A stretch of DNA of 64,000 nt from an uncultured Candidatus Saccharibacteria bacterium (lineage in GTDB: Bacteria > Patescibacteriota > Minisyncoccia > Ryanbacterales > GWA2-47-10b). Every line of letters begins with the position of its first letter. Within the stretch, counting starts at the first letter, position 1. The position numbers were made by a program, and so were the translations under genes. The notes under the pieces are model-generated. The model saw nothing but the letters and a program-made list of their open reading frames with translations. It was not told the origin of the DNA and made no database searches. Location of the stretch: positions 1,836-65,835 of the forward strand of contig CAZZGX010000027.1 of assembly GCA_964653715.1 (NCBI GenBank), given 5' to 3'. Positions 47,401 to 64,000 of the stretch are shown here, one piece after another.

Positions 47401-47892
47401 TTAACGAGTTATTACAATAGAAGCAGCGTTGCCTACCTCACATGAACCAACAGTGACAGAGTTATTTGCGTTCTTGATTAAGTAATAACCAGTTTTCCCC
47501 GCATTCCATGTACCTGTTTCAGCAGGACTTATTGGTATAGATCCCAAGTGACCTCCTGTCTGCAGAGCTGTTAGATCAACACAATTAGTACCTGCGACGG
47601 GAACGCATGGAAGATTTGAGGCGGCAGTACAAGCAGCGCCAGTATTTGTCCCTATCATATAGTTTGTACCAGCAGTCAGAAGCGTGATTGAAGGAATATA
47701 ATTTCCTCCGTTATCAACCTGATTGACGCGAACCGCGCTCAAAATTGCAGATACATCCGCAAAGCGGCGTGAGTCACGCGCGTCTCGAAAGCGCTTTAAG
47801 GGATCAAGTGCGACAAATACGATCGCCGCGAGAATCGCGATAATGGCGATAACGATTAAAAGTTCAATTAATGTAAATCCTCGTTTTTTCAT
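47401..47892 (-). CDS. Type IV major pilin (prepilin-type N-terminal cleavage/methylation domain)
   Basis: MKKRGFTLIELLIVIAIIAILAAI is the class III signal G/FTLIE. It has its own strong terminator. Confidence 0.9.
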   Translation of the reverse strand: MKKRGFTLIELLIVIAIIAILAAIVFVALDPLKRFRDARDSRRFADVSAILSAVRVNQVDNGGNYIPSITLLTAGTNYMIGTNTGAACTAASNLPCVPVAGTNCVDLTALQTGGHLGSIPISPAETGTWNAGKTGYYLIKNANNSVTVGSCEVGNAASIVITR

Positions 47893-47975
47893 ATGCTTAA
47901 AAAATATTTCAATAATACCTCTATTATATTTTATCTACGCAATATAACGAATTAAGTTATCCACAGGAGTCCCTT

Positions 47976-49682: not shown

Positions 49683-49684
49683 TT

Positions 49685-50107
49685 TTAATTGCTTTGTTCA
49701 CTCCAAGATACAATGGATATGACATTATACAGAGCCCCCGACAAAATGACGGCCGCTTGGATTTTTTTGTTGTAGCTCCCGCTTGTTCCCGTAACAGTAA
49801 TGACACGCCCTATGCCAAATGCTGATACTACTTCTATTATACAAGACCCATCGGGAGCTGTGAAACTCATTGGGCCCAGAGTTATCCCATAGAGTGGATC
49901 GATACGGATATGACGATACGTCTCTTCCATACATCCATGCGCAACACCAAGTGCCTTTGCCCCGCCCGCAGCCGATAATCCCATATCGAGCTCTCCGAGC
50001 CCAATGAGTGCCGTGCTGTAAACTTCAAGAAATGTTATTGCCCCTATAAGAATAACGGTAAAAAGCGCCGCGATACCTTTTTGATTTTTATTTTTTAAAG
50101 ATTGCAT
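49685..50107 (-). CDS. PilX-N-like minor pilus protein (no GFxxxE cleavage motif)
   Basis: N-terminus MQSLKNKNQKGIAALFTVILIGAITFL resembles the PilX N-terminal helix. Start moved to ATG 50107 to remove a 125-nt overlap. Confidence 0.5.
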   Translation of the reverse strand: MQSLKNKNQKGIAALFTVILIGAITFLEVYSTALIGLGELDMGLSAAGGAKALGVAHGCMEETYRHIRIDPLYGITLGPMSFTAPDGSCIIEVVSAFGIGRVITVTGTSGSYNKKIQAAVILSGALYNVISIVSWSEQSN

Positions 50108-50108
50108 A

Positions 50109-50618
50109 TTATTGGCGCAGACTGACGGCAGTCTCGAGCGTTTGCGAATACTGATAAATATTGTTTGCGGATGGGTTTTTATACTCAAATGTGGCGACGA
50201 CACGGAGATTGTCTCGTTCTCCCAATTCTGCAAGATTTTTGTAGGAAAGCGCTGTCACGATAACTTCTTTTCCAAGAATTGGTACGGGACTCCCCGCCAA
50301 TTGCGTCATATAGAACATCCCTCCCGCAACGCTGAATGTAATATCTGGATCAGCCCCGGGCATATCGAGCAATAATGGAAAAATCACGCCGTCGAGAGCG
50401 TTCCCTTTCGTAGGACTTGTGATGAGGCGCGCACCTCGGACTTTTTGAGTCAAAATATCAAACGCTAGGCGCGCGTTTGACTCAACTTCTTCTATCGCGT
50501 GCGCTTTAGCGCGATTTGCGGAAATAGAAATCCCAAACATTACAAATCCCGTTACGATAAGGCCGATGACGGCCACGTAGATAAGAGTTTCTATAAATGT
50601 AAATCCTTTTTTCTTCAT
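50109..50618 (-). CDS. Prepilin-type pseudopilin (minor pilin)
   Basis: MKKKGFTFIETLIYVAVIGLIV from ATG 50618. Confidence 0.8.
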   Translation of the reverse strand: MKKKGFTFIETLIYVAVIGLIVTGFVMFGISISANRAKAHAIEEVESNARLAFDILTQKVRGARLITSPTKGNALDGVIFPLLLDMPGADPDITFSVAGGMFYMTQLAGSPVPILGKEVIVTALSYKNLAELGERDNLRVVATFEYKNPSANNIYQYSQTLETAVSLRQ

Positions 50619-50619
50619 C

Positions 50620-53600
50620 CTATTTATAATTAACTCTAACTTCCTTGAGTACCGGCGAGCTCGCGCCGTCTCCACTTAAAAATACTTTGTACTCGACCCA
50701 TCGATTGCCATTGAGCGCGGTCGGCACCAAAGAAGCATTTCTAGCGGTAAAATATGTTCCGGCCCCGCCGGCCCCGTACCACGGTGTCCAAACGCCCGGC
50801 AAACCTGATACATCGGGTGCCGTCCGCAATTGAAATTGAACTGAACACGCGGGAACACATACGGGGATTGATTCATCCCACTCAATAATCTGGACTGGCG
50901 AGGGATCGGACATATTAAAATTTGAAGATGTGAGGAAGCCGCTCCCCACATAGGCGCTTCGCCGCAAAATAACTCCCTGCGCGCCGACAATCCACCCCAC
51001 ACTTTGATTGACCATTTTGACCGCGTTGAGCACGGTGGATACAGGCGACGAGTATACCTGCCACGTTGAGCCGTCCCAATGAAGAATGGTCCCGCCAGCG
51101 CCGACAATCCATCCGTCAGTTGCGGATACCATGTACACGCTATTGAGTGTCGCCGATGTTGGGGATAGAACCGATTGCCACGCGCAGATTGGGGCACAAA
51201 TATAGCGATAAATTCTTCCATTCCCGCCGACAATCCATCCGTCAGTTGCGGATACCATGTACACGCTGTTCCACGCTTGCGTGGAAATCGTTTGAGATGA
51301 CCACGAAGAACCATTCCAATGGAGCACTACCCCGTTATTCCCTACGGCCCAACCGTCACTCGCAGAAATCATGTATATGCTATTGAGTCCCGAACTAGTC
51401 GGAGATGAAACCGCTTGCCACGCGCCACCCGTTTGCCACCCGCCTCCAGTAAAATGCCGGATATTGCCTCCCAAACCCACAACCCACGCATTATCAGGAG
51501 CAAGCGCAAAGAGCGATCGCCACGCGGCAGAACCCTGCTGCAAACTTACGGCGGTAGTACCGTCCCAATGAAAAATTTTTCCCCCGCTTGCCGCAATCCA
51601 GCCATCATTTGCGGAAACCATGGAAATACTATTGAGATCGTTGGTGCTGATATTTGTGGCAAGCGTCCATCCAAAACCATCAAAATGCAGAATGTCTCCG
51701 TTGTTCGTAACGGCCCAAATATTATCCTGCGTGACAATGGAAAGATCGTTGATCGATTGTGTTGTTACAGGATTATATAGAATTGTAATATCCTGAAACT
51801 GTGGTGACACGCTGCCAACGGTGCCACGAGTAAAAGTGACACGGTACTGAAAATATCGGCGAGCGGGCGAACTAATGCTTGAGTTTATATTGTTCGTTTG
51901 TTCAGCTGAAAACGATGACCAGCTTGCATCGGGCGCGGGCGTATTGCCGGTTCTTGTAGAAACTGTCATGGTAGTGCCCACTGGTACCGCTTGAGACCAA
52001 TACATGAGAGCCCAGGTTGTGAGAGGATTGCCGCCATCGAAAATTCTGGAAAAGAGTGTTCCCACGCTCACGTATGATATATCGTAATACGCGATACGCC
52101 CAGAACTTCCAAGAGTCCAGCCGTGCGTTGCATCTTGCATTGTGACTGCATTCCAGCTCATGCCCCCTAAATCAGTAACCTCGGACCACGCGCTTCCCGA
52201 ATAGCGATAGAGTTTTCCGGTTGATCCCGCAATCCAGCCGCTGCTCGGTGATAGCATAAAAACATCATTTAAATTGGTACTCCCCGCAAAACTGCTTACC
52301 GTTTGCCACAAAGTTCCATTATAATGCCGGGCAATGCCATTGTTACCTACAACCCAGCCATCGCTCGCGGAAATCATAAATACCGAATTCCACGCTTCAT
52401 TGCCGGTATCAATTGATTTACTGCCGGTCCAATTGAGCTCATCCCAATGAAGAATTTTACCCGCGAGCCCTACCGCCCACCCATCACTAGATGAAACCAT
52501 ATAGATACTTTTCAAATCTTTGGTTCCAGCGGGCACTGCGTATGCGCCTGACCATGCCGTTCCGTTCCAACGTTTGATTGAGCCATTAGCGCCTACAATC
52601 CAAACATTATCTGCGGCAAGAACAAATACATCATTCCATGTCACGCTATCGCCGGTGCTCAAGAGCGTCCAAGTTGAACCATTCCATCTGTAAGTTCTCC
52701 CACCCGATCCAACCGCCCAACCATCGGTAGTTGTCCGCATATCAATCCCGCGGAGATTTACTGTGGCGCCTAAATTTGCGCTGACTGCCCAATTTGTTCC
52801 ATTGTACCGAAGCACCTGACCGGCATCGGTTACCGCCCAGACATCGCTGGGTCCAATCGCGTCCACATCGGTAATATTTTGAGTAGTCGCAACCGCGCTC
52901 GCCGCGTGCTCTGCCCACTGTTGCGCCTGTGCAAGCGCTACGCTTGCTCCAGCTCCCGTGCCATTTACCGCGGTACCGGACAAAGATCCCGCGTTAAAAT
53001 CAGAATCAGTAGTGTCGAAAAAACTATTTGCGTATGCAGGAACCCAGACACCGTTTGGCAACGCGCGAAGCGTAATTTGTCCTGGGGTTGTAGAGTTGTC
53101 AATATTCCCGTCGTCGCTGTTGTATTGTGTTGCGTTCGACCAGTTTGTCTGCCCCGCGCCTCCCGACCAATCAGTCTGGGTCCATTCACGAGAATCCCAA
53201 TTTGTAAGATACTCATTACGGTCAACATAACTAGAATTTCCCCACGACACGCGCACGCGGACATATTTTGAATGAATATCTTTGTAATTACCGCCAGTAG
53301 GGGGACAAGAAGCGATATTCCCAGCAGGATCGCGACATACCTCATCAAATTGGATGGTCCGCGTATATTTGCCGTTGATCAACTGCGATAACCCGGAAGT
53401 GAGCACCCAGCGATTGCCAACTTCCGAGACAACGGCCGGGCTCGGCACAATCTCATTCCACGCACCATCGCGTACCGAACGAACCGCCTCCATCCCCTCC
53501 TCGGCAAAATGGAACGCTTCTGTTTCTTCGCCTCCTTTGAGAAGTGCTGAAAAATTGCCCGCAGCTAGTGAGGCGATCGAAACCGAGAGAAGCAGGAAAA

Positions 53601-53661
53601 TCGCCATAGCGATAAGAATCTCCATGAGCGATTGGCCTTTTTTATAATCAAGCCGCTTCAT
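50620..53661 (-). CDS. Giant (1013 aa) pseudopilin with about 14 Ycf48/BNR-like beta-propeller blade repeats
   Basis: N-terminus MKRLDYKKGQSLMEILIAMAIFLL (G-x4-E prepilin motif), followed by about 14 repeats of the form (S/T)xxDGW(A/I)VG..G.I..W.G..W. Confidence 0.8.
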   Translation of the reverse strand: MKRLDYKKGQSLMEILIAMAIFLLLSVSIASLAAGNFSALLKGGEETEAFHFAEEGMEAVRSVRDGAWNEIVPSPAVVSEVGNRWVLTSGLSQLINGKYTRTIQFDEVCRDPAGNIASCPPTGGNYKDIHSKYVRVRVSWGNSSYVDRNEYLTNWDSREWTQTDWSGGAGQTNWSNATQYNSDDGNIDNSTTPGQITLRALPNGVWVPAYANSFFDTTDSDFNAGSLSGTAVNGTGAGASVALAQAQQWAEHAASAVATTQNITDVDAIGPSDVWAVTDAGQVLRYNGTNWAVSANLGATVNLRGIDMRTTTDGWAVGSGGRTYRWNGSTWTLLSTGDSVTWNDVFVLAADNVWIVGANGSIKRWNGTAWSGAYAVPAGTKDLKSIYMVSSSDGWAVGLAGKILHWDELNWTGSKSIDTGNEAWNSVFMISASDGWVVGNNGIARHYNGTLWQTVSSFAGSTNLNDVFMLSPSSGWIAGSTGKLYRYSGSAWSEVTDLGGMSWNAVTMQDATHGWTLGSSGRIAYYDISYVSVGTLFSRIFDGGNPLTTWALMYWSQAVPVGTTMTVSTRTGNTPAPDASWSSFSAEQTNNINSSISSPARRYFQYRVTFTRGTVGSVSPQFQDITILYNPVTTQSINDLSIVTQDNIWAVTNNGDILHFDGFGWTLATNISTNDLNSISMVSANDGWIAASGGKIFHWDGTTAVSLQQGSAAWRSLFALAPDNAWVVGLGGNIRHFTGGGWQTGGAWQAVSSPTSSGLNSIYMISASDGWAVGNNGVVLHWNGSSWSSQTISTQAWNSVYMVSATDGWIVGGNGRIYRYICAPICAWQSVLSPTSATLNSVYMVSATDGWIVGAGGTILHWDGSTWQVYSSPVSTVLNAVKMVNQSVGWIVGAQGVILRRSAYVGSGFLTSSNFNMSDPSPVQIIEWDESIPVCVPACSVQFQLRTAPDVSGLPGVWTPWYGAGGAGTYFTARNASLVPTALNGNRWVEYKVFLSGDGASSPVLKEVRVNYK

Positions 53662-54141
53662 CTATTGAATTTGAACAACCCCAAGAACGTTGACGCTGAC
53701 GGCAAGCGTGCCCCCCGTAGAATGCGCGAGTGTCACAAGACCTGCCGCCTGCGGCACGCCGAGACCCTTTGAAAAATAAACATCGCCCAGAGAAAAATTT
53801 GAACTTTGGGTTAGGGCCGAAGGCAAAACGGTTATCTGATCAATACTTGGGTCACGATTGGCAAAAGCAGGACTCGCGCTTGGCGATCCCCACAACGTAA
53901 AACGATTTGTATCAAAATGGACGCCGTATGTCATTCCTCCCGCGCGCGCGGCCGAACGCTCGCGCGCCTGTCTAAGAGTTGCCGCCAACTGATCGGCATA
54001 TTCGTCGAGTTGGGCGCCCCGATAAACATTGCTATAAAGTGGGGTCGCTAAAACCGCGAGTAAAAGGGTGATCGCGAGAACAATAACAAACTCAAAAGCG
54101 GTAAACCCTTTTTTAGCGCTGGATATTGCCCGTAAGCTCAT
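53662..54141 (-). CDS. Prepilin-type pseudopilin (minor pilin)
   Basis: MSLRAISSAKKGFTAFEFVIVLAITLLLA from ATG 54141, overlapping the pilC 3' end by 29 nt. Confidence 0.7.
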   Translation of the reverse strand: MSLRAISSAKKGFTAFEFVIVLAITLLLAVLATPLYSNVYRGAQLDEYADQLAATLRQARERSAARAGGMTYGVHFDTNRFTLWGSPSASPAFANRDPSIDQITVLPSALTQSSNFSLGDVYFSKGLGVPQAAGLVTLAHSTGGTLAVSVNVLGVVQIQ

Positions 54142-55198
54142 AGATGGGCGTAATGATGGCGAGCGCGAATATGACAACTATAATACCTATAATAAGCAAA
54201 AGCATGGGTTCTATAATAGTAGAAAGTGATTTTGCGGTCGTATCGACTCCTTCCTCATAAAAATTAGCAAGATATAAAAGTGTCTCCTCAAAGCGCCCGG
54301 ACTCTTCCCCAACCTGCACCATGCGCGTAACTATTTTAGGAAAAAGTTTTTTGTGCGACTCGAGACTTTCGGCAAGTTTTCCTCCTTTACTGATGTGTAC
54401 CGACACGTCTTCAAGGGCGCGGCGATAATAAAAATTGCCGGTGCTTGAAGCGGTAATATCGAGCGCCTCATCGATATTGATTCCACTTTTAAGCAGCGTC
54501 CCCAGTGTTCTTGAAAAACGCGCGAGATTCGCGCCCATCACAAGGCGCTTGATAAGAGGCGTGTGCAAAAAAATCCAATGGGTCACGGGCTTTATAAAAT
54601 TTTGACGGATAAGCCATACAAAGAAAAAAATAAAAAATACGAGACCAAGAAGCAGCCAAACGCCATCATTTTGAATAAGGTGCGCGAACCAAATAAGAGC
54701 GCGCGTGCTCATTGGTAAGTCTATCTTAAGTCCCTCAAAAAGAGGTATGATCTTTGGAAGCACAACAAAGGACATAAAAATACCGAGGATAAATGTGGCA
54801 ACAAGAATGAACCCGGGATACACCAAGGCGCCTGTCACTTTTGCCGTAAGCTCTTTTTCCTTTTCAAGCTCTTGGGCAACGCTCTCAAGATTTTCGGCGA
54901 GCTGCCCCGAGGCCTCCCCTGCACGCACCGATTCCGTAAAAAGGCCCGAAAATACTCGAGGATAATCTGAAAATGACGAGGAAAGGGAACGCCCCGTCTC
55001 AACCGCTTTGAGGACTCCTCCGAGCGTCGGCTTCAGTCTGCCTTCAGCCGCGTCTGCCGCGATTGAAAGCGCCTCAATGATTGTAAGACCAGACCGCAAC
55101 ATCACTGCCAAGTGCTTGGCAAGCAATGCTCGTTGGGTAAGGCTTACCCCACCAAAAGAAATAGAACGATTTAATTTTTTTACGCTACTTGTTTTCAT
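54113..55198 (-). CDS. pilC: Type IV pilus platform protein PilC (GspF family)
   Basis: Two T2SSF repeats and three TM helices. 361 aa. Confidence 0.85.
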   Translation of the reverse strand: MKTSSVKKLNRSISFGGVSLTQRALLAKHLAVMLRSGLTIIEALSIAADAAEGRLKPTLGGVLKAVETGRSLSSSFSDYPRVFSGLFTESVRAGEASGQLAENLESVAQELEKEKELTAKVTGALVYPGFILVATFILGIFMSFVVLPKIIPLFEGLKIDLPMSTRALIWFAHLIQNDGVWLLLGLVFFIFFFVWLIRQNFIKPVTHWIFLHTPLIKRLVMGANLARFSRTLGTLLKSGINIDEALDITASSTGNFYYRRALEDVSVHISKGGKLAESLESHKKLFPKIVTRMVQVGEESGRFEETLLYLANFYEEGVDTTAKSLSTIIEPMLLLIIGIIVVIFALAIITPIYELTGNIQR

Positions 55199-55581
55199 TT
55201 TTTTCGCTTTGCCAAATGCGTCCGAACCAGCTCCGGCAATTTATTTATTGAAAAATCGGTTTTAACAAGATAGTCGGCGGCACCCAGTTCAAGCCCTGTT
55301 TTGATGTCCGACTCTTGCCCGAGATTAGTGAGAATAATAACCGGAATATGTTTTGTTTCTTTATTAAGCTTAATCTCACTTAAAATATCAAAACCGTTTT
55401 TTTGCGGCAAAATAATATCAAGGAGCACCAAATCCGGTTTCTCCTGCACTACCTTCCCAAGCCCTTCCTCACCTGAAATCGCCATACTGACTTCAAATCC
55501 TTCGCGCTTGAGCTTATCGCTATAGAGCTTTAGAAGAAACTTGTCGTCCTCGATAATAAGAATGTTTTTTTTGTCGTCCAT
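55195..55581 (-). CDS. Single-domain response regulator (CheY-like receiver)
   Basis: ILIIEDDKFLLKLY...LVLLDIILPQKNG has the phospho-acceptor Asp context. 128 aa with no output domain. Confidence 0.85.
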   Translation of the reverse strand: MDDKKNILIIEDDKFLLKLYSDKLKREGFEVSMAISGEEGLGKVVQEKPDLVLLDIILPQKNGFDILSEIKLNKETKHIPVIILTNLGQESDIKTGLELGAADYLVKTDFSINKLPELVRTHLAKRKK

Positions 55582-55584
55582 TGT

Positions 55585-56304
55585 TTAACGCAAGGGTAAT
55601 GTGAAATAAAAAGTGGTTCCTTTCTCTGGCACACTCTCAAACCATATAGTGCCGCCGCTTGCCATAATGATCGCCTTCGAAATGAAAAGCCCGAGCCCCG
55701 AGCCTTCGGCGGCGAGCGCTACCACGCGCGGACTCCGATAAAATTTACTGAATATTTTCTTGCGGTCTGTGGTCGTGATGCCAACACCGCTATCGGCACA
55801 GGCAAAAAGGACCTCTTTTGTATTTTTTGTAACGGCAACCTTAATATTTCCCTTTCCTTTATTATAGCGTATTGCGTTGTAAATAATATTGGTCACGACT
55901 TCTTGGATTTTAGTTGCATCTATCGAAATAAGAGCCACGGGGGAAGGCACATCCAGCGAAATAGTGGTGTTTTTGGCGCTGGCAAACGCGGTAAGATCTT
56001 TAATCACAGTTCGTACGATCTCAACAAAATCAGAAGGACTTTTTTCAAGCGTCATGCGGCTCTCGTCAATCCGAGAAGCATCAAGCAAATTTTTGACAAG
56101 CTGAATCATCTTATCCGTGCCTCCATAGGCTAGGCGCAAATATTCTTCCTGTTCGGGAGAAAGTTTTCCCAAATCGCCGGAAAGAAGCACCTCTATCGAA
56201 GACTTTATGCCCGCGAGCGGAGTTTTCAATTGATGCGCGATAACCGACGTAACTTCGGTAATTCTTTTTTCGCTTTTAAGTGAAAGTGTTTTTTTTGATC
56301 TCAT
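55585..56304 (-). CDS. Sensor-less histidine kinase (DHp + HATPase_c only)
   Basis: H-box IAHQLKTPLAGI and N/G1/G2 boxes (NAIRYN, DSGVGI, GSGLGL). No TM or sensor domain. 239 aa. Confidence 0.85.
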   Translation of the reverse strand: MRSKKTLSLKSEKRITEVTSVIAHQLKTPLAGIKSSIEVLLSGDLGKLSPEQEEYLRLAYGGTDKMIQLVKNLLDASRIDESRMTLEKSPSDFVEIVRTVIKDLTAFASAKNTTISLDVPSPVALISIDATKIQEVVTNIIYNAIRYNKGKGNIKVAVTKNTKEVLFACADSGVGITTTDRKKIFSKFYRSPRVVALAAEGSGLGLFISKAIIMASGGTIWFESVPEKGTTFYFTLPLR

Positions 56305-56306
56305 TG

Positions 56307-58094
56307 TTATTCTTTAGTGGCGCGGATAACTTCTTCAAGCGTGGTAATGCCTACAATAACTTTCTGAATCCCGTCCTCGAGCATCGTGGTCATGCCGCTA
56401 CTCTCTGCCACTTTCATAATTTCGATAGAGGCCGCCCGTTTGGTAATTAAATCTTTAATTTCATCGTTCATCAAAAGCACTTCAAAAATTCCAACCCGCC
56501 CGAGGTATCCCGTGCTAGAGCAAACAGGACATCCCCCGCCCTTGTAAAAACGAATTTTCGCAAACGACGATTTATTCTTTATCTTTAAAAGCTTTTTTAA
56601 GTGCGGGTCCTCTTCGATCATTGCCTTTTCCTCCGGAAGAAGTTTATACGAGACGCGGCACTTCTCACAAATGCGGCGCACGAGTCGCTGGGCGATGATA
56701 CAATTGACGGTTGAGGCCACAAGAAATGGCTCGACCTTCATATCCAAAAGGCGCGGCAGAGTGGTCGCCGCGTCATTTGCGTGGAGCGTTGAGAGGACGA
56801 GGTGGCCGGTCATGGCTGAGTTTACGGCGATATCAGCGGTTTCCTCATCGCGGATCTCGCCGACCATAATCATGTCCGGGTCCTGCCGGACGATCGCGCG
56901 AAGTCCTTTTGCGAACGTCAGATTGGTTCTTGAGTTTACCTGAATTTGGCTGACTCCTTCAATTTCATATTCAACAGGATCCTCAATGGTTGAGATATGA
57001 ACGTCGCGGGTGTTTAAAATTTTGAGCATGCCGTAGACCGTCGTCGTCTTCCCGGATCCCGTAGGGCCTGTTACAAGAATCATCCCGTGCGGATTGTCGA
57101 TCGAGCGGCGGACTTTTTTAAAATCAGCCTCACCCAACCCCAAATCCGTAAGGCCAAATTGCCGGCTCCGAGCCGAGAGGATACGCATGACGACATTTTC
57201 GCCTTCGGTCACCGGCACAATGGAAATACGAACGTCCACTTTTTCATCATCGGCCTCAAAAGCAAGCTTACCATCCTGTGCCGCGCGGTGCTCGTCAGTA
57301 CGCATTTTCGATAATATTTTTATGCGCGTCAAAATCAAATCCATGAGCGCTTTGGGCACGTCAAGAACATCGTGCATAACGCCGTCAACTCGAAAGCGAA
57401 CCATTACCTTGCCGGGGTGCGGCTCCACATGAATATCGGATGCCTTTGAATCATATCCGTAGTGGAGCAGCATATCGACAACCTCAACGATAGTCTCGTC
57501 GCGCTCCTCTTTTGAAAGAAGAGTGTCGTTGAGCTTGCCAAGAATTTTTTTAAATTCATCGTGAATATTGGCTTTGTAGCGCGCGAGTACATCATCAAAA
57601 CTCCGGCGTGTCATGTAAAACGGCATGACTTTAGCGCCGAGCCGTTTTTCAAGAAGATGCGTTGCCTCAAAATCATCGGGATCGCGCATGCCTACCTTGA
57701 CGCCCGCACCCCTGCGCGAGAAGGCAACCACACCGCGCGCGCGCGCAACTGCTTCGGGAATTTCGTGAAGTAGCGCCTCATCAATTTTTTCTTCCTTAAG
57801 ATCGACGAAGGAAACTCCCAGCTCCTCTGCTATGATCTTACCTAGCTGGTCGTCATTGATAAGGTCCTTATCAATCAAAAGCTCGTCGAGTGCTTTCCCC
57901 TGCTCACCTGCTTCTTTTTTGGCAAGCTCAAAATCCGCCTCCGAGACAAGACCGGGCTTTACCAGCAACTCCTTTATTTTTTCATCGGTAAGGTCCACAG
58001 CTAAATTTAATTGTATTATAACTGAAAGCGGTAGATGGAGACAGTGCTTTGTTTTAAAGTATATATTGGTGGTCTTTGGAGGGATCAATGACAA
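56307..58094 (-). CDS. pilB: Type IV pilus assembly ATPase PilB (GspE family)
   Basis: N-terminal GSPII_E_N domain, Walker A GPTGSGKTTT, and a tetra-Cys motif (CEKC...CPVC). 595 aa. The N-terminus overlaps the divergent XRE gene; the true start may be the downstream GTG at 57998. Confidence 0.9.
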   Translation of the reverse strand: MSLIPPKTTNIYFKTKHCLHLPLSVIIQLNLAVDLTDEKIKELLVKPGLVSEADFELAKKEAGEQGKALDELLIDKDLINDDQLGKIIAEELGVSFVDLKEEKIDEALLHEIPEAVARARGVVAFSRRGAGVKVGMRDPDDFEATHLLEKRLGAKVMPFYMTRRSFDDVLARYKANIHDEFKKILGKLNDTLLSKEERDETIVEVVDMLLHYGYDSKASDIHVEPHPGKVMVRFRVDGVMHDVLDVPKALMDLILTRIKILSKMRTDEHRAAQDGKLAFEADDEKVDVRISIVPVTEGENVVMRILSARSRQFGLTDLGLGEADFKKVRRSIDNPHGMILVTGPTGSGKTTTVYGMLKILNTRDVHISTIEDPVEYEIEGVSQIQVNSRTNLTFAKGLRAIVRQDPDMIMVGEIRDEETADIAVNSAMTGHLVLSTLHANDAATTLPRLLDMKVEPFLVASTVNCIIAQRLVRRICEKCRVSYKLLPEEKAMIEEDPHLKKLLKIKNKSSFAKIRFYKGGGCPVCSSTGYLGRVGIFEVLLMNDEIKDLITKRAASIEIMKVAESSGMTTMLEDGIQKVIVGITTLEEVIRATKE

Positions 58095-58342
58095 AGGACG
58101 GTATTAATCAGAAGTTCGTGGCACGACGGATTCGAGAAGCGATAGATATGCATGCCGAAGGCGATATCCAGCTATTTGCGCATTACGTCGGGCTCTCTGC
58201 TTCAGCAATGTACAACTATATCCATACCGAAAGAACCCCTTCAACCAGAGCGCTTTGGAAAATATCTAGATTCACGAACTTGCCAATGGAATGGTTTCTC
58301 ACAGAACCCAAACGGCAAATCACGAACCTTTCAGACAATTAA
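58076..58342 (+). CDS. XRE-family helix-turn-helix transcriptional regulator
   Basis: Cro/C1-type HTH (FAHYVGLSASAMYNYIHTERTPSTRALWKISRFTNLPMEWF). 88 aa. Confidence 0.65.
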   Translation: MEGSMTKDGINQKFVARRIREAIDMHAEGDIQLFAHYVGLSASAMYNYIHTERTPSTRALWKISRFTNLPMEWFLTEPKRQITNLSDN

Positions 58343-58346
58343 AAAA

Positions 58347-58371
58347 ACCGCCCACGGGCGGTCTTTTTTTT
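58347..58371 (+). terminator. Intrinsic terminator (A7-ACCGCCC-ACG-GGCGGT-T9)
   Basis: GC hairpin plus U-run 5 nt after the XRE stop. Confidence 0.8.
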
Positions 58372-58387
58372 ATTAAACACGTCTGCA

Positions 58388-58417
58388 TTGACAAAAGAAC
58401 AGTTTTAGTGTAAGAAT
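58388..58417 (+). promoter_or_regulatory. Consensus-like sigma70 promoter TTGACA-17 nt-TAAGAAT
   Basis: Perfect -35 hexamer, 17-nt spacer and a good -10. About 20 nt downstream lie AAGGAGG and an ATG at 58448. Confidence 0.6.
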
Positions 58418-58447
58418 AAGTTAGACAAATTTGCCAAGGAGGTTTCA

Positions 58448-58909
58448 ATGCGGCGAATCAGGCGATTCTTTCAAAAAATAACTCTCATCGAACTCATCGC
58501 GATTTGTGCAGTGGGAGGTATTACAGGCAAAATGTACCTTCTCGTGCGAGAGCGACAAGATCTGCGAATGCAGATCGGTGTCGTACTGCTCGAGCATAAG
58601 CTCGTGTATCGTTACGAAGAGCGCGGGTTTGGCACTCTTGCGCGTCTTTGCAAAAGTACACCGCGCAAATGGCGCGAGTTTTACTTTACCTGCAAAGCAA
58701 CGAAAAGACCAAGTGCGCCAGCCTCGCTTGTAACCACGATATACCGCAATCGATTCGCGGCCAATCATAAATACGCCGCTTTCAAGCGGCGCTGGCAATC
58801 ATCTGAATGGATCCCCATTCGGCGCTCACCCGGACTTGTCTCGCGACAAGTCCGTTTTTTTATTTATCCGGAAATTCTTTTTAAAATTGTTCTTTCAATA
58901 AAAAAATGA
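58448..58909 (+). CDS. Hypothetical highly basic small protein, OR an untranslated about 440-nt RNA (ORF runs through its own terminator)
   Basis: The best promoter and SD in the window sit upstream. The 153-aa ORF (MRRIRRFFQKITLIELIAICAVGG...) continues about 50 nt past an intrinsic terminator at 58831-58862. Confidence 0.3.
   Translation: MRRIRRFFQKITLIELIAICAVGGITGKMYLLVRERQDLRMQIGVVLLEHKLVYRYEERGFGTLARLCKSTPRKWREFYFTCKATKRPSAPASLVTTIYRNRFAANHKYAAFKRRWQSSEWIPIRRSPGLVSRQVRFFIYPEILFKIVLSIKK
58831..58862 (+). terminator. Intrinsic terminator (CGGACTTGTC-TCGC-GACAAGTCCG + T8)
   Basis: Perfect 10-bp stem plus U-run. It lies inside the 58448 ORF. Confidence 0.75.
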
Positions 58910-58938
58910 GGGTGTCCGGCACCTAGCAGGACACCCTC
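58901..58938 (-). terminator. Intrinsic terminator for minus-strand gene 58978..59580 (GAGGGTGTCC-N11-GGACACCCTC, T7 on minus)
   Basis: 10-bp stem preceded by A7 on plus. Convergent with the plus-strand terminator 40 nt away. Confidence 0.7.
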
Positions 58939-58977
58939 TTAGTCGCAGACACCTGATCAACTTGCTTTAGCCATCGC

Positions 58978-59580
58978 TTACTCGTAAACCACGAGCTTGT
59001 TGTCTCGGTGGTCAAGCGCGATTCGCGGTGGAAGACTCCACTCCTCTGCAAGTTTCTCGACCAGCTGGTCTGACGGCTTGGCAAGTTTGCAACTTTCGTC
59101 GCTAAGCTGGACCCAATTGCCGAACTTGCGCGCGTAGTAGCCATCATCACGCTTTTCTACACGGAACGCGTAGAAACTCGCTTGGTCCTTCGCCTGTGCC
59201 TTATACGCGCCTTTCTGTCCATGCTTGTCTGCGGCGCGTTCGCGGCAAACCGGGCAAGCGCGGTGAAGCTTCAAGAAATCAGAGAAACTGTAATAGGCAT
59301 TCCCGTAGCCGTGGGAATACTCCTCCCTCCCTTCGACGAGCAGGAGTTCTGCTCTACCCGTGGGAACAATTTCGGAGCAATAGGTGCACCAAGTCATTCC
59401 GCGAGCATGGAGTTCCTGCTGGAGAAGCTCGACGCGTTTCGCGCCGTATTCGCTAACTACCTGCCGGAGTGTCTGTTGCTTGGCGGAAAGTTTGAGTGAA
59501 ATCTGGTCGATGTTCTGTGCTGTACGCTCGGCCCGCTTACGCATGGCCAAAAGCTCTGTCGCCATCGCTTCTTGTGCCAT
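58978..59580 (-). CDS. Hypothetical coiled-coil protein with CxxC...CxxC zinc ribbon
   Basis: 200 aa. N-terminal heptad region, then CTYCSE-x27-CPVCRE. SD AAAGGAGAG 7 nt upstream. Local GC is above the window background. Confidence 0.55.
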   Translation of the reverse strand: MAQEAMATELLAMRKRAERTAQNIDQISLKLSAKQQTLRQVVSEYGAKRVELLQQELHARGMTWCTYCSEIVPTGRAELLLVEGREEYSHGYGNAYYSFSDFLKLHRACPVCRERAADKHGQKGAYKAQAKDQASFYAFRVEKRDDGYYARKFGNWVQLSDESCKLAKPSDQLVEKLAEEWSLPPRIALDHRDNKLVVYE

Positions 59581-59654
59581 AAAAAGCTCTCCTTTTTATG
59601 TTTGATTGTTGGAGTTCCATAAACAAGCTACCAAAAACAGCAATAAAAATCAAA

Positions 59655-59688
59655 CGAAAACAGAAACCATTTCAAATTTCTGTTTTCG
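59655..59688 (-). terminator. Terminator hairpin (CGAAAACAGAAA-N10-TTTCTGTTTTCG), T-rich on minus side
   Basis: Perfect 12-bp stem 30 nt downstream of the 59717 stop. Confidence 0.55.
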
Positions 59689-59716
59689 AAAAATCTTTAT
59701 GAAAAAAATTCTTTTG

Positions 59717-60001
59717 CTATTTGATTTTCCTCTCAAGACGAGCAACGCGGGTTTCGAGAAATTTAAACTCATCACGAGTTATTTGATTGTGGCGGATAAG
59801 CGCAAGTTCCGATTTCATAATATCAATATCGCCTTCGACTTTCATGAGCTTCTCGTCAATTTTATCTAATCTTCTCGTATGTTGTTTTGTCTCATCGCGG
59901 ACAAAATCCAAACTTTCTCCAAATACTCTAAAATCAGAGTGGATATTCTCTAAAACAATAGTATAAGCGTCTTTTTCTCTTATCTGCTTTCTCTTGGCCA
60001 T
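59717..60001 (-). CDS. Hypothetical coiled-coil protein (94 aa)
   Basis: Heptad-rich (…LDKIDEKLMKVEGDIDIMKSELALIRHNQITRDEFKFLETRVARLERKIK), AT-rich, with its own terminator. Confidence 0.45.
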   Translation of the reverse strand: MAKRKQIREKDAYTIVLENIHSDFRVFGESLDFVRDETKQHTRRLDKIDEKLMKVEGDIDIMKSELALIRHNQITRDEFKFLETRVARLERKIK

Positions 60002-60063
60002 AAATTTATCTTATCCCCAGAATCTACAAAAGTCAAAATAAGAATCTACAACTCCGTCTCAAA

Positions 60064-60150
60064 GCGGAGAGGGTGAGATTCGAACTCACGAGAGGATTGC
60101 TCCTCTGGCGGTTTTCAAGACCGCTGCCTTCAACCACTCAGCCACCTCTC
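60064..60150 (-). tRNA. tRNA-Ser (anticodon UGA), class II with long variable arm, CCA not encoded
   Basis: Hand fold: GGAGAGG-TG-GCT-GAGTGGTTGAA-GGC-A-GCGGT-CTTGAAA-ACCGC-CAGAGGAGCAATCCTCTC-GTGAG-TTCGAAT-CTCAC-CCTCTCC-G. Confidence 0.85.
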
Positions 60151-60195
60151 CGCTCTACTACGGAATCATTTCAAATTTTTAAGACCGCCGCCTTG

Positions 60196-60405
60196 TCGCG
60201 CTTATCACGCGGTTAAACATGACACGAGTCATGTTTAACGGGCTTCCCGCCTCGCCTCGATGGTGAGTCGAGGCGGGCGCCCGTCAAAAGCAACCCCATT
60301 GCTTTTGACCCACCCAGCCACCCCACCAGTGCAAATAGAATATCAAAATTGGGGCGAATTTCAACTTGAAAATAAATTCGGGGACGTTCCTTTTGGAACG
60401 TCCCC
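60196..60405. repeat. Cluster of four unrelated perfect/near-perfect GC-rich palindromes (stems 11-12 bp) plus minor AT palindromes
   Basis: 60212-60239 GTTAAACATGAC/GTCATGTTTAAC. About 60249-60279 CGCCTCGA/TCGAGGCG. 60283-60309 GTCAAAAGCAA/TTGCTTTTGAC. 60378-60405 CGGGGACGTTCC/GGAACGTCCCCG; the last also acts as terminator for the 60427 gene. Confidence 0.8.
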
Positions 60406-60426
60406 GACTCTTTGTTCGGCCAGCAA

Positions 60427-60735
60427 CTAGACCGGACGGATCTCGTGCACTTTGCGCTGCAACACGACGACCTTGCCATTGAGCGGCGTGGCCACCTGGA
60501 TGCGTTTGCCCACACGGCGGCGCACTTTGCCTGTGAACTCTCGCCTCCCATGCGTAAGCCTTACCTGGTCGCCCGGCGTAATCTTCACAGTGACGCCTTC
60601 GACGATGGTCCCATCTGGAAGGATCAGATCCCGTGGCTCCAGATGCTCGAGGCTCACCGGGGGTACAAACTCTTTGACCCCAGGCCGCAGGTATAGTAGA
60701 GCAGCAACTCCGATGAAAATCAGCAAAATGCTCAT
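60427..60735 (-). CDS. Hypothetical small membrane-anchored protein encoded in a 60+% GC segment
   Basis: 102 aa. SD GGAAGGAGG 6 nt upstream. N-terminal TM (MSILLIFIGVAALLYL) then a beta-rich domain (ILPDGTIVEGVTVKITPGDQVRL...). Hand-counted GC about 63% over 120 nt versus about 33-45% elsewhere. Confidence 0.55.
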   Translation of the reverse strand: MSILLIFIGVAALLYLRPGVKEFVPPVSLEHLEPRDLILPDGTIVEGVTVKITPGDQVRLTHGRREFTGKVRRRVGKRIQVATPLNGKVVVLQRKVHEIRPV

Positions 60736-60874
60736 TTCTGCCTCCTTCCTTCATTGTAAAACAGTTTCATGAACCCAAAAACATTATATCATAATTATAT
60801 TGATTGTCAATATTCGTATAAATCTATTGTTATGCGCGATACTTCGTGCTAGGGATAAGCAGTAATTTATACCA

Positions 60875-62092
60875 ATGAATACCACCAAGGTAGTACAAGA
60901 ACTTGCCCAAGGACCAACACTTTCCATTATCGCGCTTATTGACGCCCTCATAGAAGAAGCGCACGGCCTCCGCGCATCGGACATTCATATTGACCCCAAT
61001 GAAAAAGAAGTTAAAGTGCGCGTGCGCATCGACGGTGTACTGCAAGACACCTATTCCATTCCTAAAGAAATCCAATCTGAAGTTATAACGAGAATTAAAG
61101 TCCTCTCTGGACTCCGCACGGACGAGCACCAAGCGCCGCAGGACGGGCGTTTTAGAATCGTACTTGCAGAGCAAAGTCCAATTGATATTCGCGTATCCAT
61201 CGCGCCTTCTTATTACGGAGAAAATGCGGTTTTGCGTCTTCTTTCCGAACGATCAGAAAAATTCGCGCTTGAGATGCTTGGCTTCAGCGAAGAAAACCAA
61301 GAAAAAATCGCGCGCGCCATCAGAAACCCATATGGAATGATACTGGCAACGGGACCAACGGGATCAGGCAAAACCACGACGCTCTACACCATTTTAAAAC
61401 AGCTCAATACAAAAGAGGTTTCCATTATAACGATCGAAGATCCGATAGAATACGCGCTCGACGGAATCAACCAGATGCAGGTCAACGCGCGGAGCGGTCT
61501 CACGTTTGCAAACGGCCTTCGCTCTATTTTGCGTCAAGACCCTGACATCATCATGGTTGGCGAAATCCGCGATTCCGAAACCGCCGGGCTTGCGGTAAAC
61601 ACGGCGCTCACCGGTCACCTCGTTCTATCCACACTTCACACAAACGACGCGGCAACCACACTCCCCCGCATGCTTGATCTGGGTCTCGAGCCGTATCTCA
61701 TCACTGCCACGGTAAATCTAGTTATTGGCCAGCGACTTGTCAGAAAAATATGTAGAGAGTGCAAAAAAGAGCACGAACTTACGCCTGCGGAACAAAAAAG
61801 TCTCGCAACAACAAAAAATATCCCGGCCTCGTTTAGTCAAATGCGCTCGGTGTGGCGAGGAGCTGGCTGTGAAGCATGCAACGGCAGTGGCTATAGAGGA
61901 CGCCTCGGCATTTATGAGATCATCGAGGTCAACGACGAGCTCAGAAACGCCATGCTCGAGCGATGCTCGTCTGAAAATATAAAAAAAGTTGCGATCCAAC
62001 ATGGCATGAGAAGCATGGTCGAGGACGGTTTTAAAAAAGTATTCAGAGGTCTCACCACCTTCGAAGAAGTTCTCCGCGTCATCCATGAATAA
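60875..62092 (+). CDS. GspE/PilB-family secretion ATPase, short form (second copy)
   Basis: Walker A GPTGSGKTTT, Asp/His boxes, and a tetra-Cys motif (CRECKKEH...CEACNGSG) that marks GspE/PilB rather than PilT. 405 aa. Confidence 0.85.
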   Translation: MNTTKVVQELAQGPTLSIIALIDALIEEAHGLRASDIHIDPNEKEVKVRVRIDGVLQDTYSIPKEIQSEVITRIKVLSGLRTDEHQAPQDGRFRIVLAEQSPIDIRVSIAPSYYGENAVLRLLSERSEKFALEMLGFSEENQEKIARAIRNPYGMILATGPTGSGKTTTLYTILKQLNTKEVSIITIEDPIEYALDGINQMQVNARSGLTFANGLRSILRQDPDIIMVGEIRDSETAGLAVNTALTGHLVLSTLHTNDAATTLPRMLDLGLEPYLITATVNLVIGQRLVRKICRECKKEHELTPAEQKSLATTKNIPASFSQMRSVWRGAGCEACNGSGYRGRLGIYEIIEVNDELRNAMLERCSSENIKKVAIQHGMRSMVEDGFKKVFRGLTTFEEVLRVIHE

Positions 62093-63173
62093 GCCAAAAC
62101 TCTCCGCAATGTCTCTTTCTCTCTTCCGCACCCGTCTGTCGCTTCGGGATCAGGCGCTTTTTGCCAAACGCCTTTCGCTCCTCTCACGTGCAGGCGTAAC
62201 GCTGCTTGAATCGATCAACATCATGAACCGCCAGAGTAAGGGCGCTAGAAAAAAAATGTATGAGGAGATTGAGAATGATTTAGCAAACGGACAATATTTA
62301 TCAAAAAGTCTCGCGCGACACCACCATAGCTTTGGCAACTTTGCCATAAATATTATTCGAGTCGGCGAGACAACTGGCACGCTTTCAGATAATTTGCTCT
62401 ACCTCTCGGAAGAAATCGACAAAAAAAGAGAATTGCGAGGAAAAGTCATCGGCGCCCTTATCTACCCGATCATTATCATGGTATCAGCGCTCGCAATTGC
62501 CGGATTTTTAACGATTTACCTTTTTCCAAAACTTATGCCGGTGTTTCAAAGCTTAAACGTAAAGTTACCAATAACGACGCGAGCGCTCATCTGGATAAGC
62601 ACATTTCTCATCGCCTACGGGCCTTGGATAATCGCCGGCCTCGTGGTGGGATTGATCGCGCTTTTCATTGCGTTGCGGGATGAACGTGTTCGGTTCATTT
62701 TTGATCATTTTCTTTTAAAAATTCCTGTCATGGGCGATGTACTTCAGCACTATCATATCAGCAACACCTGCCGCACCATGGGGCTCCTATTAAAAAGCAA
62801 CGTGCGCGTCTTGGAATCTGTTACGGTGGCAGCAGAAACTTCAAGCAATTTGCCCTATAGATACGCGCTCGCGCACCTTAAGACCGCAATCACCAAAGGG
62901 TCAAATATCGCGAAACAACTCGAGAAAAAACCGGGTCTTTTCCCCATCATGCTCACCGAGATGATCGCAATCGGAGAGAAAACCGGTAATCTGTCCGAGA
63001 CGTTTCTCTATTTATCTGGAATCTACGAACAGGAACTTGATGAAAAAACTAAACGACTTTCCTCAACTATTGAACCCGCCATGATGCTGGGAATGGGACT
63101 GCTTGTCGGCTTTATCGCAGTCTCCATCATCACGCCTATTTATGAGGTTACGCAACACTTGCAACCAAGGTAG
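62085..63173 (+). CDS. GspF/PilC-family platform protein (second copy)
   Basis: Two T2SSF repeats and three TMs, translationally coupled to the upstream ATPase (8-nt overlap). Confidence 0.85.
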   Translation: MNKPKLSAMSLSLFRTRLSLRDQALFAKRLSLLSRAGVTLLESINIMNRQSKGARKKMYEEIENDLANGQYLSKSLARHHHSFGNFAINIIRVGETTGTLSDNLLYLSEEIDKKRELRGKVIGALIYPIIIMVSALAIAGFLTIYLFPKLMPVFQSLNVKLPITTRALIWISTFLIAYGPWIIAGLVVGLIALFIALRDERVRFIFDHFLLKIPVMGDVLQHYHISNTCRTMGLLLKSNVRVLESVTVAAETSSNLPYRYALAHLKTAITKGSNIAKQLEKKPGLFPIMLTEMIAIGEKTGNLSETFLYLSGIYEQELDEKTKRLSSTIEPAMMLGMGLLVGFIAVSIITPIYEVTQHLQPR

Positions 63174-63642
63174 GGAAAAAAGCAGCGCGGGAATTACCGT
63201 GACTGAAATTATGCTCGTCTTAGGCATTATGTCCATCGTGTCCGGATTTTCGCTCTTTGCCAACATGGATAGTTACCGTGGATACGCGTTTCGAGGAACC
63301 CGGGACATGTTGGTGGCAGTTTTACAAAAAGCCAGAAGCCAAAGTATTAACAACATGTGTTTTGGAAGCGCGTGTACTGACGGCAAACCACACGGAGTGC
63401 ATTTTACCCCCGGCCAATACGTCATTTTCCAAGGTGCAAGCTGGGCCGCGCGCGACGCCGCACTTGATGAAATTGTAAAAATTGAGAGCGCGAATGTGCA
63501 AGTAAGCGGGCCCGATATTGTTTTCGCGCAACTCTCAGGAAACGCGAGCCCAGCGGGAGGCGTCATCACCGTGGTCGATGATGCAAGCCACTCTTCAGTA
63601 ATCTCAGTTAATGGAGAGGGCCAGATACTTTGGACAAATTAA
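63142..63642 (+). CDS. Prepilin-like protein (atypical long leader, G-ITVTE motif)
   Basis: …KSSAGITVTEIMLVLGIMSIVSGF has G then E at +5. The only in-frame ATG upstream is at 63142, a 17-aa leader overlapping pilC2. Confidence 0.5.
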   Translation: MRLRNTCNQGREKSSAGITVTEIMLVLGIMSIVSGFSLFANMDSYRGYAFRGTRDMLVAVLQKARSQSINNMCFGSACTDGKPHGVHFTPGQYVIFQGASWAARDAALDEIVKIESANVQVSGPDIVFAQLSGNASPAGGVITVVDDASHSSVISVNGEGQILWTN

Positions 63643-63646
63643 TTAT

Positions 63647-64000
63647 ATGAAAAAGAACAACACAAAAACGGCAGGATTTTCAATATTTGAGATTCTCATC
63701 GCGATGACGATAATGATTGTCACCATTTCAGCGGTCGTTCTTGTCGCATTTGGCAACCAATCGGTTCTCATCGATAGCCAGACCAATACAGAGGCGATCG
63801 CAAAAGCGCAAGAACTTTTGGAGAGCGCGCAAGCTGCCGCCCGGAAAGATTTTAAACTGGTCAACCCAGTACCGTTAACGACGGCTACGGACGCGGACGG
63901 ATGGACCTACACAAAAAAAGTTGACATCACGGGATCTGATTTTTTCATGAAAGAGATCAAGGCCACTATTTCATGGCAGGGCGACCACAATAGGTCTCTC
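63647..64000 (+). CDS. Prepilin-type pilin/pseudopilin, 5' part (continues past window end; not in ORF track)
   Basis: Hand translation from ATG 63647: MKKNNTKTAGFSIFEILIAMTIMIVTISAVVLVAFGNQS..., a canonical GFxxxE class III signal. Confidence 0.8.
   Translation, partial: MKKNNTKTAGFSIFEILIAMTIMIVTISAVVLVAFGNQSVLIDSQTNTEAIAKAQELLESAQAAARKDFKLVNPVPLTTATDADGWTYTKKVDITGSDFFMKEIKATISWQGDHNRSL

Follow-up and report, generated by a model that had tools for sequence, protein, structure and literature searches.

The 64-kb window analysed here, which is the whole stretch from position 1,836 to 65,835 of contig CAZZGX010000027.1 of an uncultured bacterium deposited as Candidatus Saccharibacteria, ends in four closely packed plus-strand genes of a type IV filament system (module 2, Table 1), on which the open reading frame (ORF) map and the sequence itself agree. 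They encode a short secretion ATPase, a platform protein and two prepilin-like proteins, and they are divergent from a minus-strand PilB operon (module 1), with 2.8 kb of small ORFs and a tRNA-Ser in between. The platform ATG overlaps the ATPase stop by 8 nt, as ATGAATAA, and the ATG of the first prepilin gene (pil1, 63142) lies 32 nt inside the platform gene, an overlap called identically in relatives. A second, divergent ATPase-platform-pilin module with overlapping genes had been described at this place in a first-pass annotation of the window, and all four genes are confirmed at the coordinates given for them. It had also been said that two prepilin genes follow the platform gene. Both indeed carry class III signals with predicted cleavage sites; the second, however, is the truncated N-terminus of a large protein (448–624 aa in relatives), and the window thus holds under half of the module-2 operon.

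The ATPase matches PF00437 (T2SSE) over the full-length domain, that is N2 plus the C-terminal ATPase domain (residues 17-401, E 8e-128), and contains the Walker A (160), Asp (187), Walker B (222) and His (246) boxes together with a Zn-binding tetracysteine, C293xxC296...C332xxC335. The catalytic motifs and the four cysteines are kept in 120/120 of the best database homologues, which are 63–100% identical and nearly all 400–410 aa long, the closest being from metagenome-assembled genomes (MAGs) of Paceibacterota/Parcubacteria, which marks the organism as a member of the Patescibacteria (candidate phyla radiation, CPR). The earlier description of a gspE-like gene of 405 aa that retains its tetracysteine is therefore borne out. 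Among proteins in the PDB, Thermus PilF, Geobacter PilB, Myxococcus PilB and Vibrio GspE are matched at E about 1e-107 to 1e-104, always across their N2 and C-terminal domains, versus E 1e-37 for BfpD and 1e-33 for PilT. The scores against NCBIfam models are 522 bits for GspE (TIGR02533), 493 for PilB, 263 for ComGA (NF041000) and 176 for PilT (TIGR01420), all four under the respective equivalog cut-offs of 630.25, 675.65, 300 and 319.1 bits. The PilB/GspE class is thus favoured over PilT by 70 orders of magnitude (PDB) or about 350 bits (NCBIfam), and judged by its sequence the short ATPase is a PilB/GspE-class extension (assembly) motor and not a PilT.

What sets this motor apart from its class is the absence of the N1/MshEN (GSPII) domain. 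The alignments begin at position 108 of the GspE profile and position 181 of the PilB profile, so the whole N1/MshEN region is missing. Because a stop codon lies just upstream and an opposite-strand ORF (60427-60735) is only 139 nt away, there is no room for a longer protein. The shortness of the ATPase is a family trait, at ~404 aa throughout. The platform protein has two T2SSF domains (Pfam, E 8.5e-52). Its GspF and PilC alignments begin near profile position 51-64, and its NCBIfam scores are 280 bits for GspF (TIGR02120), 234 for PilC and 149 for ComGB (NF041012), under the cut-offs for GspF (424) and ComGB (240).

The pil1 product begins with a leader of 17 aa (MRLRNTCNQGREKSSAG) followed by ITVTE, giving the predicted cleavage site ...SSAG↓ITVTEIMLVLG. 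The deposited gene model (P0122, 143 aa) starts at Met24, within the mature pilin helix, and omits this signal; ortholog alignments favour the upstream ATG at 63142, which restores it. The 17-aa leader and the G-ITVTE motif had been singled out as unusual, but they are mild variants: among the 53 family members with an intact N-terminus, leader length varies between 2 and 36 aa, with conserved Gly/Ala at –1 and Glu at +5, and Ile at +1 (3/53) and Thr at +4 (4/53) recur. An AlphaFold2 model built from 52 homologues is confident (pLDDT 90.3), and pil1 has the GspH-type globular fold of the GspH/FimU/FimT family of minor pilins; a profile of its orthologs matched PDB sequences in the N-terminal pilin helix only. 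Gene 4 starts at ATG 63647 with MKKNNTKTAG↓FSIFEILIAM. Its 117-aa fragment found no homologue in a protein database search, and it matches orthologs at six related loci (L001, L003, L005, L006, L008 and L010; phmmer E 2e-7 to 9e-23). Several of these orthologs carry LVIVD repeats (L006, E 1.4e-18; L010, E 4.5e-6), which form a beta-propeller.

The remainder of the operon is visible in relatives, where seven genes follow one another in the order short ATPase, platform, pil1, big beta-propeller pilin, p145, p165 and major pilin. This order is kept in the Paceibacteria loci L001, L003, L005, L006 and L008 (a Yanofskybacteria contig), in Jorgensenbacteria L009 and in the Saccharibacteria MAG L010, the ATPases of the contigs L001-L006 being 69–77% identical to that of the window. 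A reduced version, with ATPase, platform, a 448-aa large pilin and the major pilin, is found on a second Saccharibacteria contig (L044). The pil1 products of the relatives have about 165 aa, the big proteins 474–624, the two small pilins about 125–170 and the major pilins 156–198. Class III signals occur in all five pilin products, with a canonical KGFTLIE in the major pilin and no Glu5 in the fourth minor pilin (GFVALITAI...). Tip pilins of the GspK/PilX type are likewise without Glu5, and the set looks like four priming or tip minor pilins plus one major pilin, as far as can be read from these sequences. No PilM-like, PilT-like or peptidase gene lies within the operon at these related loci. 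The genes flanking it vary between loci, which makes the operon an independent unit, and other Patescibacteria carry it with no module 1 in the vicinity. A functional meaning of its divergent pairing with module 1 was considered and rejected, since the adjacency is not conserved in relatives.

The prepilin genes of the relatives showed one further peculiarity, a GIY-YIG nuclease-domain element of ~285–300 bp that sits in frame within the leader-peptide region. In the Yanofskybacteria locus (MGJI01000027, L008:9480-12520) the genes for pil1, the big pilin and the minor pilin after it each contain one copy; the three are 82–98% identical, and every one lies between a degenerate GFTPLE and the real cleavage motif, GFTLIE. 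A different copy is carried by pil1 of L001 (12594-13295), and two pilins of L009 (12342-12962 and 15482-16078) contain 28-aa footprints (GFTPLESVVAHNGNKSQARERGALSSLT) with similar ends. This pattern points to a mobile element with the conserved GFTLIE-coding DNA as its target, which prepilin peptidase would remove from the mature pilin. The window itself has no such element, and a search of the literature on GIY-YIG domains in combination with prepilins found nothing relevant.

Together this leads us to regard module 2 as probably the start (the first 3.1 kb) of a conserved seven-gene operon for a second, distinct, Com-like minimal type IV filament that is a paralog of module 1. In such a machine a hexameric PilB/GspE-class ATPase, cut down to its N2 and catalytic domains, would dock on its own PilC-type platform and drive the polymerisation of a dedicated major pilin, the gene for which lies beyond the window and is seen in relatives. 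Polymerisation would begin on a priming or tip complex of four minor pilins, namely the FimU/GspH-fold pilin, the large beta-propeller pilin (a likely adhesin), a small pilin and the Glu5-less GspK/PilX-like pilin, all presumably processed by a prepilin peptidase encoded elsewhere. Alignment proteins of the PilM/N/O type would be absent from this machine, which fits the loss of the ATPase N-terminal domain. In type II secretion it is the PilM-like cytoplasmic domain of GspL to which the N1 domain of GspE binds. That N1 and PilM are missing together is coherent, and we infer a link between the two. By analogy with the second pilus (T4P-2) of cultured Saccharibacteria and its PilX2 protein, the second filament probably serves attachment to a host or surface, and the most likely role is that of an adhesive, possibly non-retractile filament, DNA uptake being a further possibility. 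Two distinct filaments had been one of the two alternatives raised for this locus, and it is the better of the two.

A competence pseudopilus of the Com type, dedicated to DNA uptake, is the rival that fares best, although we consider it improbable. The composition of the operon, with an N1-less ATPase, a short platform, one major and four minor pilins, and neither PilMNOP, secretin nor PilT, equals that of the minimal Com machine, and Patescibacteria are naturally competent and reliant on imported nucleotides (PMC11623550; PMC6744442). However, the curated models do not recognise the Com proteins in it, as ComGA reaches 263 of the required 300 bits and ComGB 149 of 240, with the GspE/PilB and GspF/PilC models scoring about twice as high, and the short ATPase nests in a Patescibacteria PilB clade. 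Furthermore, the gene order differs in that the major pilin comes last, no comEC or comEA was found in the window or in the relatives' operon, the large beta-propeller pilin suggests adhesion, and the non-essential second pilus of Nanosynbacter lyticus TM7x has no effect on transformation (PMC11623550). Because its ATPase and platform are not ComGA and ComGB by curated models or tree, module 2 reads as a PilB-clade system that would work like a Com-type minimal machine while standing outside the Com family.

To place the motor we compared 132 ATPases, drawn from 80 loci of GTDB species representatives, the relatives' contigs, database matches and E. coli GspE, HofB and YggR, in a neighbour-joining tree (324 core columns, 200 bootstraps); references for the ComGA, MSHA, type IVb pilus (T4bP) and Tad ATPases are not among them, and the exclusion of these families is drawn from hidden Markov model and PDB scores only. 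In this tree 28 PilT-like proteins split from all PilB/GspE-like proteins at 100% bootstrap. The short family is monophyletic (74%) and joins a 579-aa Jorgensenbacteria ATPase (83%), the two together join the window's own 595-aa PilB (73%), and E. coli GspE falls outside the Patescibacteria clade. We therefore derive the short motor from a Patescibacteria PilB that lost its N-terminal domain; it is neither a PilT nor a GspE proper.

This placement bears directly on the other alternative of the first-pass annotation, an extension/retraction pair in which the short ATPase replaces PilT on the module-1 pilus, or acts as a bifunctional motor like CpaF of the Tad system. The idea draws on the absence of any PilT-family gene from the 64-kb window, on a length near that of PilT, on the lack of an N1 domain (as in PilT) and on the adjacency of the two modules in this genome. 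PilT and PilU are recognised by a C-terminal motif of the AIRNLIRE type and have no tetracysteine. The short ATPase shows the reverse, as the tetracysteine typical of PilB/GspE is kept and AI[RK]N[LI]IR finds no match in it; its TIGR01420 score (176 bits) is far from the 319 required, and the phylogeny places it outside canonical PilT, whereas a position firmly within PilT had been envisaged as a possible outcome. In addition, its gene overlaps that of its own platform and is followed in relatives by a full pilin set, the module occurs elsewhere without module 1 nearby, and genuine PilT genes of Patescibacteria adjoin a different PilB clade (L067 and L070). We therefore hold a substitute for PilT to be highly doubtful.

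At L067 (3629-8500) and L070 (9428-14600) a PilB of 586–596 aa from that different Patescibacteria clade is followed by a PilT-like ATPase, PilC and a pilin, the PilT-like gene coming directly after PilB at L067 and after a small receiver gene at L070. This order ties PilT to another type of pilus locus in the phylum, and many Patescibacteria lineages may carry three PilB paralogs. In Jorgensenbacteria (MFKK01000008, L009:9455-11194) the ortholog of the short ATPase has an N-terminal receiver domain (PF00072, E 3.5e-18, residues 22-125), and genes for a histidine kinase and a separate receiver protein lie before it; this implies a putative phosphorelay control of the pilus motor in that lineage. 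Judging from these domain arrangements, regulatory or docking modules can evidently be exchanged at the N-terminus in this ATPase clade.

A type II secretion pseudopilus would account for GspE and GspF being the top-scoring curated models and for the GspH-like fold of pil1. The same scores lie under the equivalog cut-offs (522 vs 630 and 280 vs 424 bits), and the GspE model outscores the PilB model by only 29 bits, while in the tree E. coli GspE stands apart. No secretin (GspD) and no GspC, GspL or GspM was found in module 2 of the window or in any related operon, and Patescibacteria are without PilQ-type secretins and an outer membrane (PMC6744442), so that a secretion system of this kind is very unlikely. 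A recent tandem duplicate of module 1, or a decaying truncated copy without a function of its own, would fit the adjacency, the common gene order and an ATPase short of about 185 N-terminal residues, but can be set aside with near certainty, as the identities to module 1 of 51% for the ATPase (over PilB residues 201-595) and 34% for the platform speak for old paralogy and not a recent duplication, the module stands alone elsewhere, more than 100 database homologues, 63–77% identical, have the matching ~404-aa length and intact motifs, and the seven-gene synteny is kept across several Patescibacteria classes; the simple tandem duplication that had been thought of beforehand is thus not what we see.

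Module 1 spans 47401-58094 on the minus strand, and each module-2 gene has a weak but specific counterpart there in the same order (phmmer, with the window and L003 genes). Its pilB and pilC are separated by the genes of a histidine kinase and a response regulator; kinase/regulator pairs are also found upstream of PilB at the Patescibacteria loci L018, L019 and L041. The 1013-aa protein of module 1 has a class III signal and a Trp/Gly-rich unit that is repeated many times, and its residues 827-900 match the PSII_BNR (Ycf48) model (PF14870, E 5.9e-14). The spacer between the modules (58095-60874, 2.8 kb) is unremarkable in GC content and contains a tRNA-Ser(TGA) at 60064-60151 and several small ORFs, of which 58978-59580 (with two CxxC pairs), 59717-60001 and 60427-60735 have no Pfam match. 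Upstream of the short ATPase the plus strand showed no consensus sigma-70 promoter. A perfect extended consensus (TTGACA-16-TG-TATAAT) is present on the minus strand at 60783-60810, directed away from the ATPase and towards the 102-aa ORF 60427-60735, after which follows a bidirectional terminator-like hairpin with a 13-bp stem (60378-60407). The remaining window holds housekeeping genes of a small genome (tRNA synthetases, Mur ligase/FtsW/MurG, DnaK/DnaJ, RpoA, DnaB and RecR).

Table 1. Genes of the two type IV filament modules in the 64-kb window
Feature	Position	Strand	Description
Module 2, short ATPase	60875..62092	+	405 aa, PF00437; N1-less PilB/GspE class (N2 + C-terminal ATPase domain, Zn tetracysteine)
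Module 2, PilC/GspF platform protein	62085..63173	+	362 aa, two T2SSF domains
Module 2, pil1, FimU/GspH-fold minor prepilin	63142..63642	+	166 aa, 17-aa leader, predicted cleavage G17↓I18, Glu at +5
Module 2, gene 4, large pilin-like protein	63647..64000	+	N-terminal 117 codons (MKKNNTKTAG↓FSIFE...), frame open to window end
Module 1, full-length PilB	56307..58094	-	ORF 595 aa, T2SSE E 1e-124, MshEN E 2.7e-13
Module 1, histidine kinase	55585-56304	-	239 aa, no obvious sensor domain
Module 1, response regulator, single-domain	55195-55581	-	Pfam
Module 1, PilC	54113-55198	-	Pfam
Module 1, GspH-like pilin	53662-54177	-	Pfam
Module 1, pilin-like repeat protein	50620-53661	-	1013 aa
Module 1, pilins	50109-50675 and 49685-50233	-	
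Module 1, PilM-like + SH3 protein	47976-49682	-	568 aa, weak PilM_2 N-terminus, C-terminal SH3_3
Module 1, major pilin	47401-47892	-	

Several points weigh against a second, distinct minimal filament. The window has 4/7 genes, the last of them truncated, and the rest is taken from relatives whose ATPases are 54–77% identical. No prepilin peptidase gene is present in the 64-kb window. The internal nodes of the tree are only moderate (73–83%) and come from a distance method on 324 columns with no ComGA, MSHA, T4bP or Tad reference. The receiver domain that replaces N1 in the Jorgensenbacteria ortholog indicates that this clade cannot in every case do without an N-terminal partner or regulatory domain. 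Finally, T4P-2 of TM7x keeps PilM2/N2/O2 and has its pilins at a separate locus, and module 2 was compared with it by architecture only (from PMC11623550).

A bolder version of the second-filament reading, to which we give little credence, is that the ~404-aa ATPase operon is a Patescibacteria-wide machine derived from the type IVa pilus (T4aP) and independently shrunk to a Com-like minimum, in which the N1-less motor would act alone, possibly for both extension and retraction, and the pilin-fused propeller adhesin would select the host. If true, it would offer a compact, genetically tractable model of a type IV filament with ATPase and platform only, and a determinant of epibiont host range.

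Type IV pili abound in Patescibacteria, as is already known (PMC6744442), and are the main surface tools of these ultrasmall, host-dependent cells; two pili with distinct functions have been demonstrated by experiment only in cultured Saccharibacteria so far. The conservation of a second, stripped-down operon (N1-less PilB, platform and five pilins, one of them propeller-bearing) in Paceibacteria, Jorgensenbacteria and some Saccharibacteria gives a candidate host-attachment filament for uncultured lineages, a natural case of a PilB-clade motor without N1 domain or PilM partner, and a correction to the gene model of the first pilin. What is currently understood of type IV filament biology is unchanged by it. 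Module 2 is a well-conserved, so far undescribed subtype of a well-known machine, fairly ordinary and common in this group.

The nearest counterpart studied by experiment is TM7x (Nanosynbacter lyticus), which makes two distinct type IV pili, a thick, essential one associated with PilT and a thin, non-essential one without PilT, the major pilin and beta-propeller protein PilX2 of the latter promoting host binding and not transformation (PMC11623550). The likeness of T4P-1 and T4P-2 to the modules described here consists of a Patescibacteria cell with two PilB/PilC sets and two sets of five pilins (one major, four minor), a second system without PilT, and one large minor pilin per set, PilX2 with its beta-propeller being the proposed adhesin; the Saccharibacteria MAG L010 carries an ortholog of the module-2 operon itself. 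In contrast to T4P-2, module 2 has no PilM/N/O genes, an ATPase without N1 and a single operon.

By composition the closest counterpart is the Com pilus of monoderm bacteria (ComGA-ComGG), the accepted minimal type IV filament machine with ATPase, platform, peptidase and 1+4 pilins (PMC10191384). Both have an N1-less extension ATPase, a short platform (about 350–360 aa), one major and four minor pilins and a peptidase encoded elsewhere, and both do without PilMNOP, secretin and PilT. This minimal gene set is complete in the orthologous operons L001, L003, L005, L006, L008 and L010, the window showing its first four genes only. The two differ in that the module-2 proteins score below the ComGA and ComGB cut-offs and resemble PilB/GspE and PilC/GspF more, in that the major pilin is the first pilin gene in Com and the last gene here, and in the ~500-aa beta-propeller minor pilin, which Com does not have; a role in DNA uptake is not indicated.

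The ATPase core finds its best matches (E about 1e-107, with the Zn tetracysteine) in the type IVa pili of Pseudomonas, Myxococcus, Geobacter and Thermus (PilB/PilC plus FimU-PilVWX), with which module 2 also shares four priming minor pilins, one of them without Glu5, and a large propeller protein reminiscent of PilY1. Unlike these pili it has no N1/MshEN domain on the ATPase, no PilMNOP/Q and no PilT in the operon, and its propeller is fused to a pilin N-terminus whereas PilY1 is a separate protein. Module 1, finally, is a colinear paralog: ATPase and platform come first, then the GspH-like pilin, the large pilin and the two small pilins, with the major pilin at the end. Its ATPase is one of the long proteins nearest to the short family. 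It adds the MshEN N-terminal domain, the histidine kinase/response regulator pair and the PilM-like + SH3 protein, and where module 1 has the 1013-aa repeat protein matching PSII_BNR, module 2 has instead a ~500-aa protein with LVIVD repeats.

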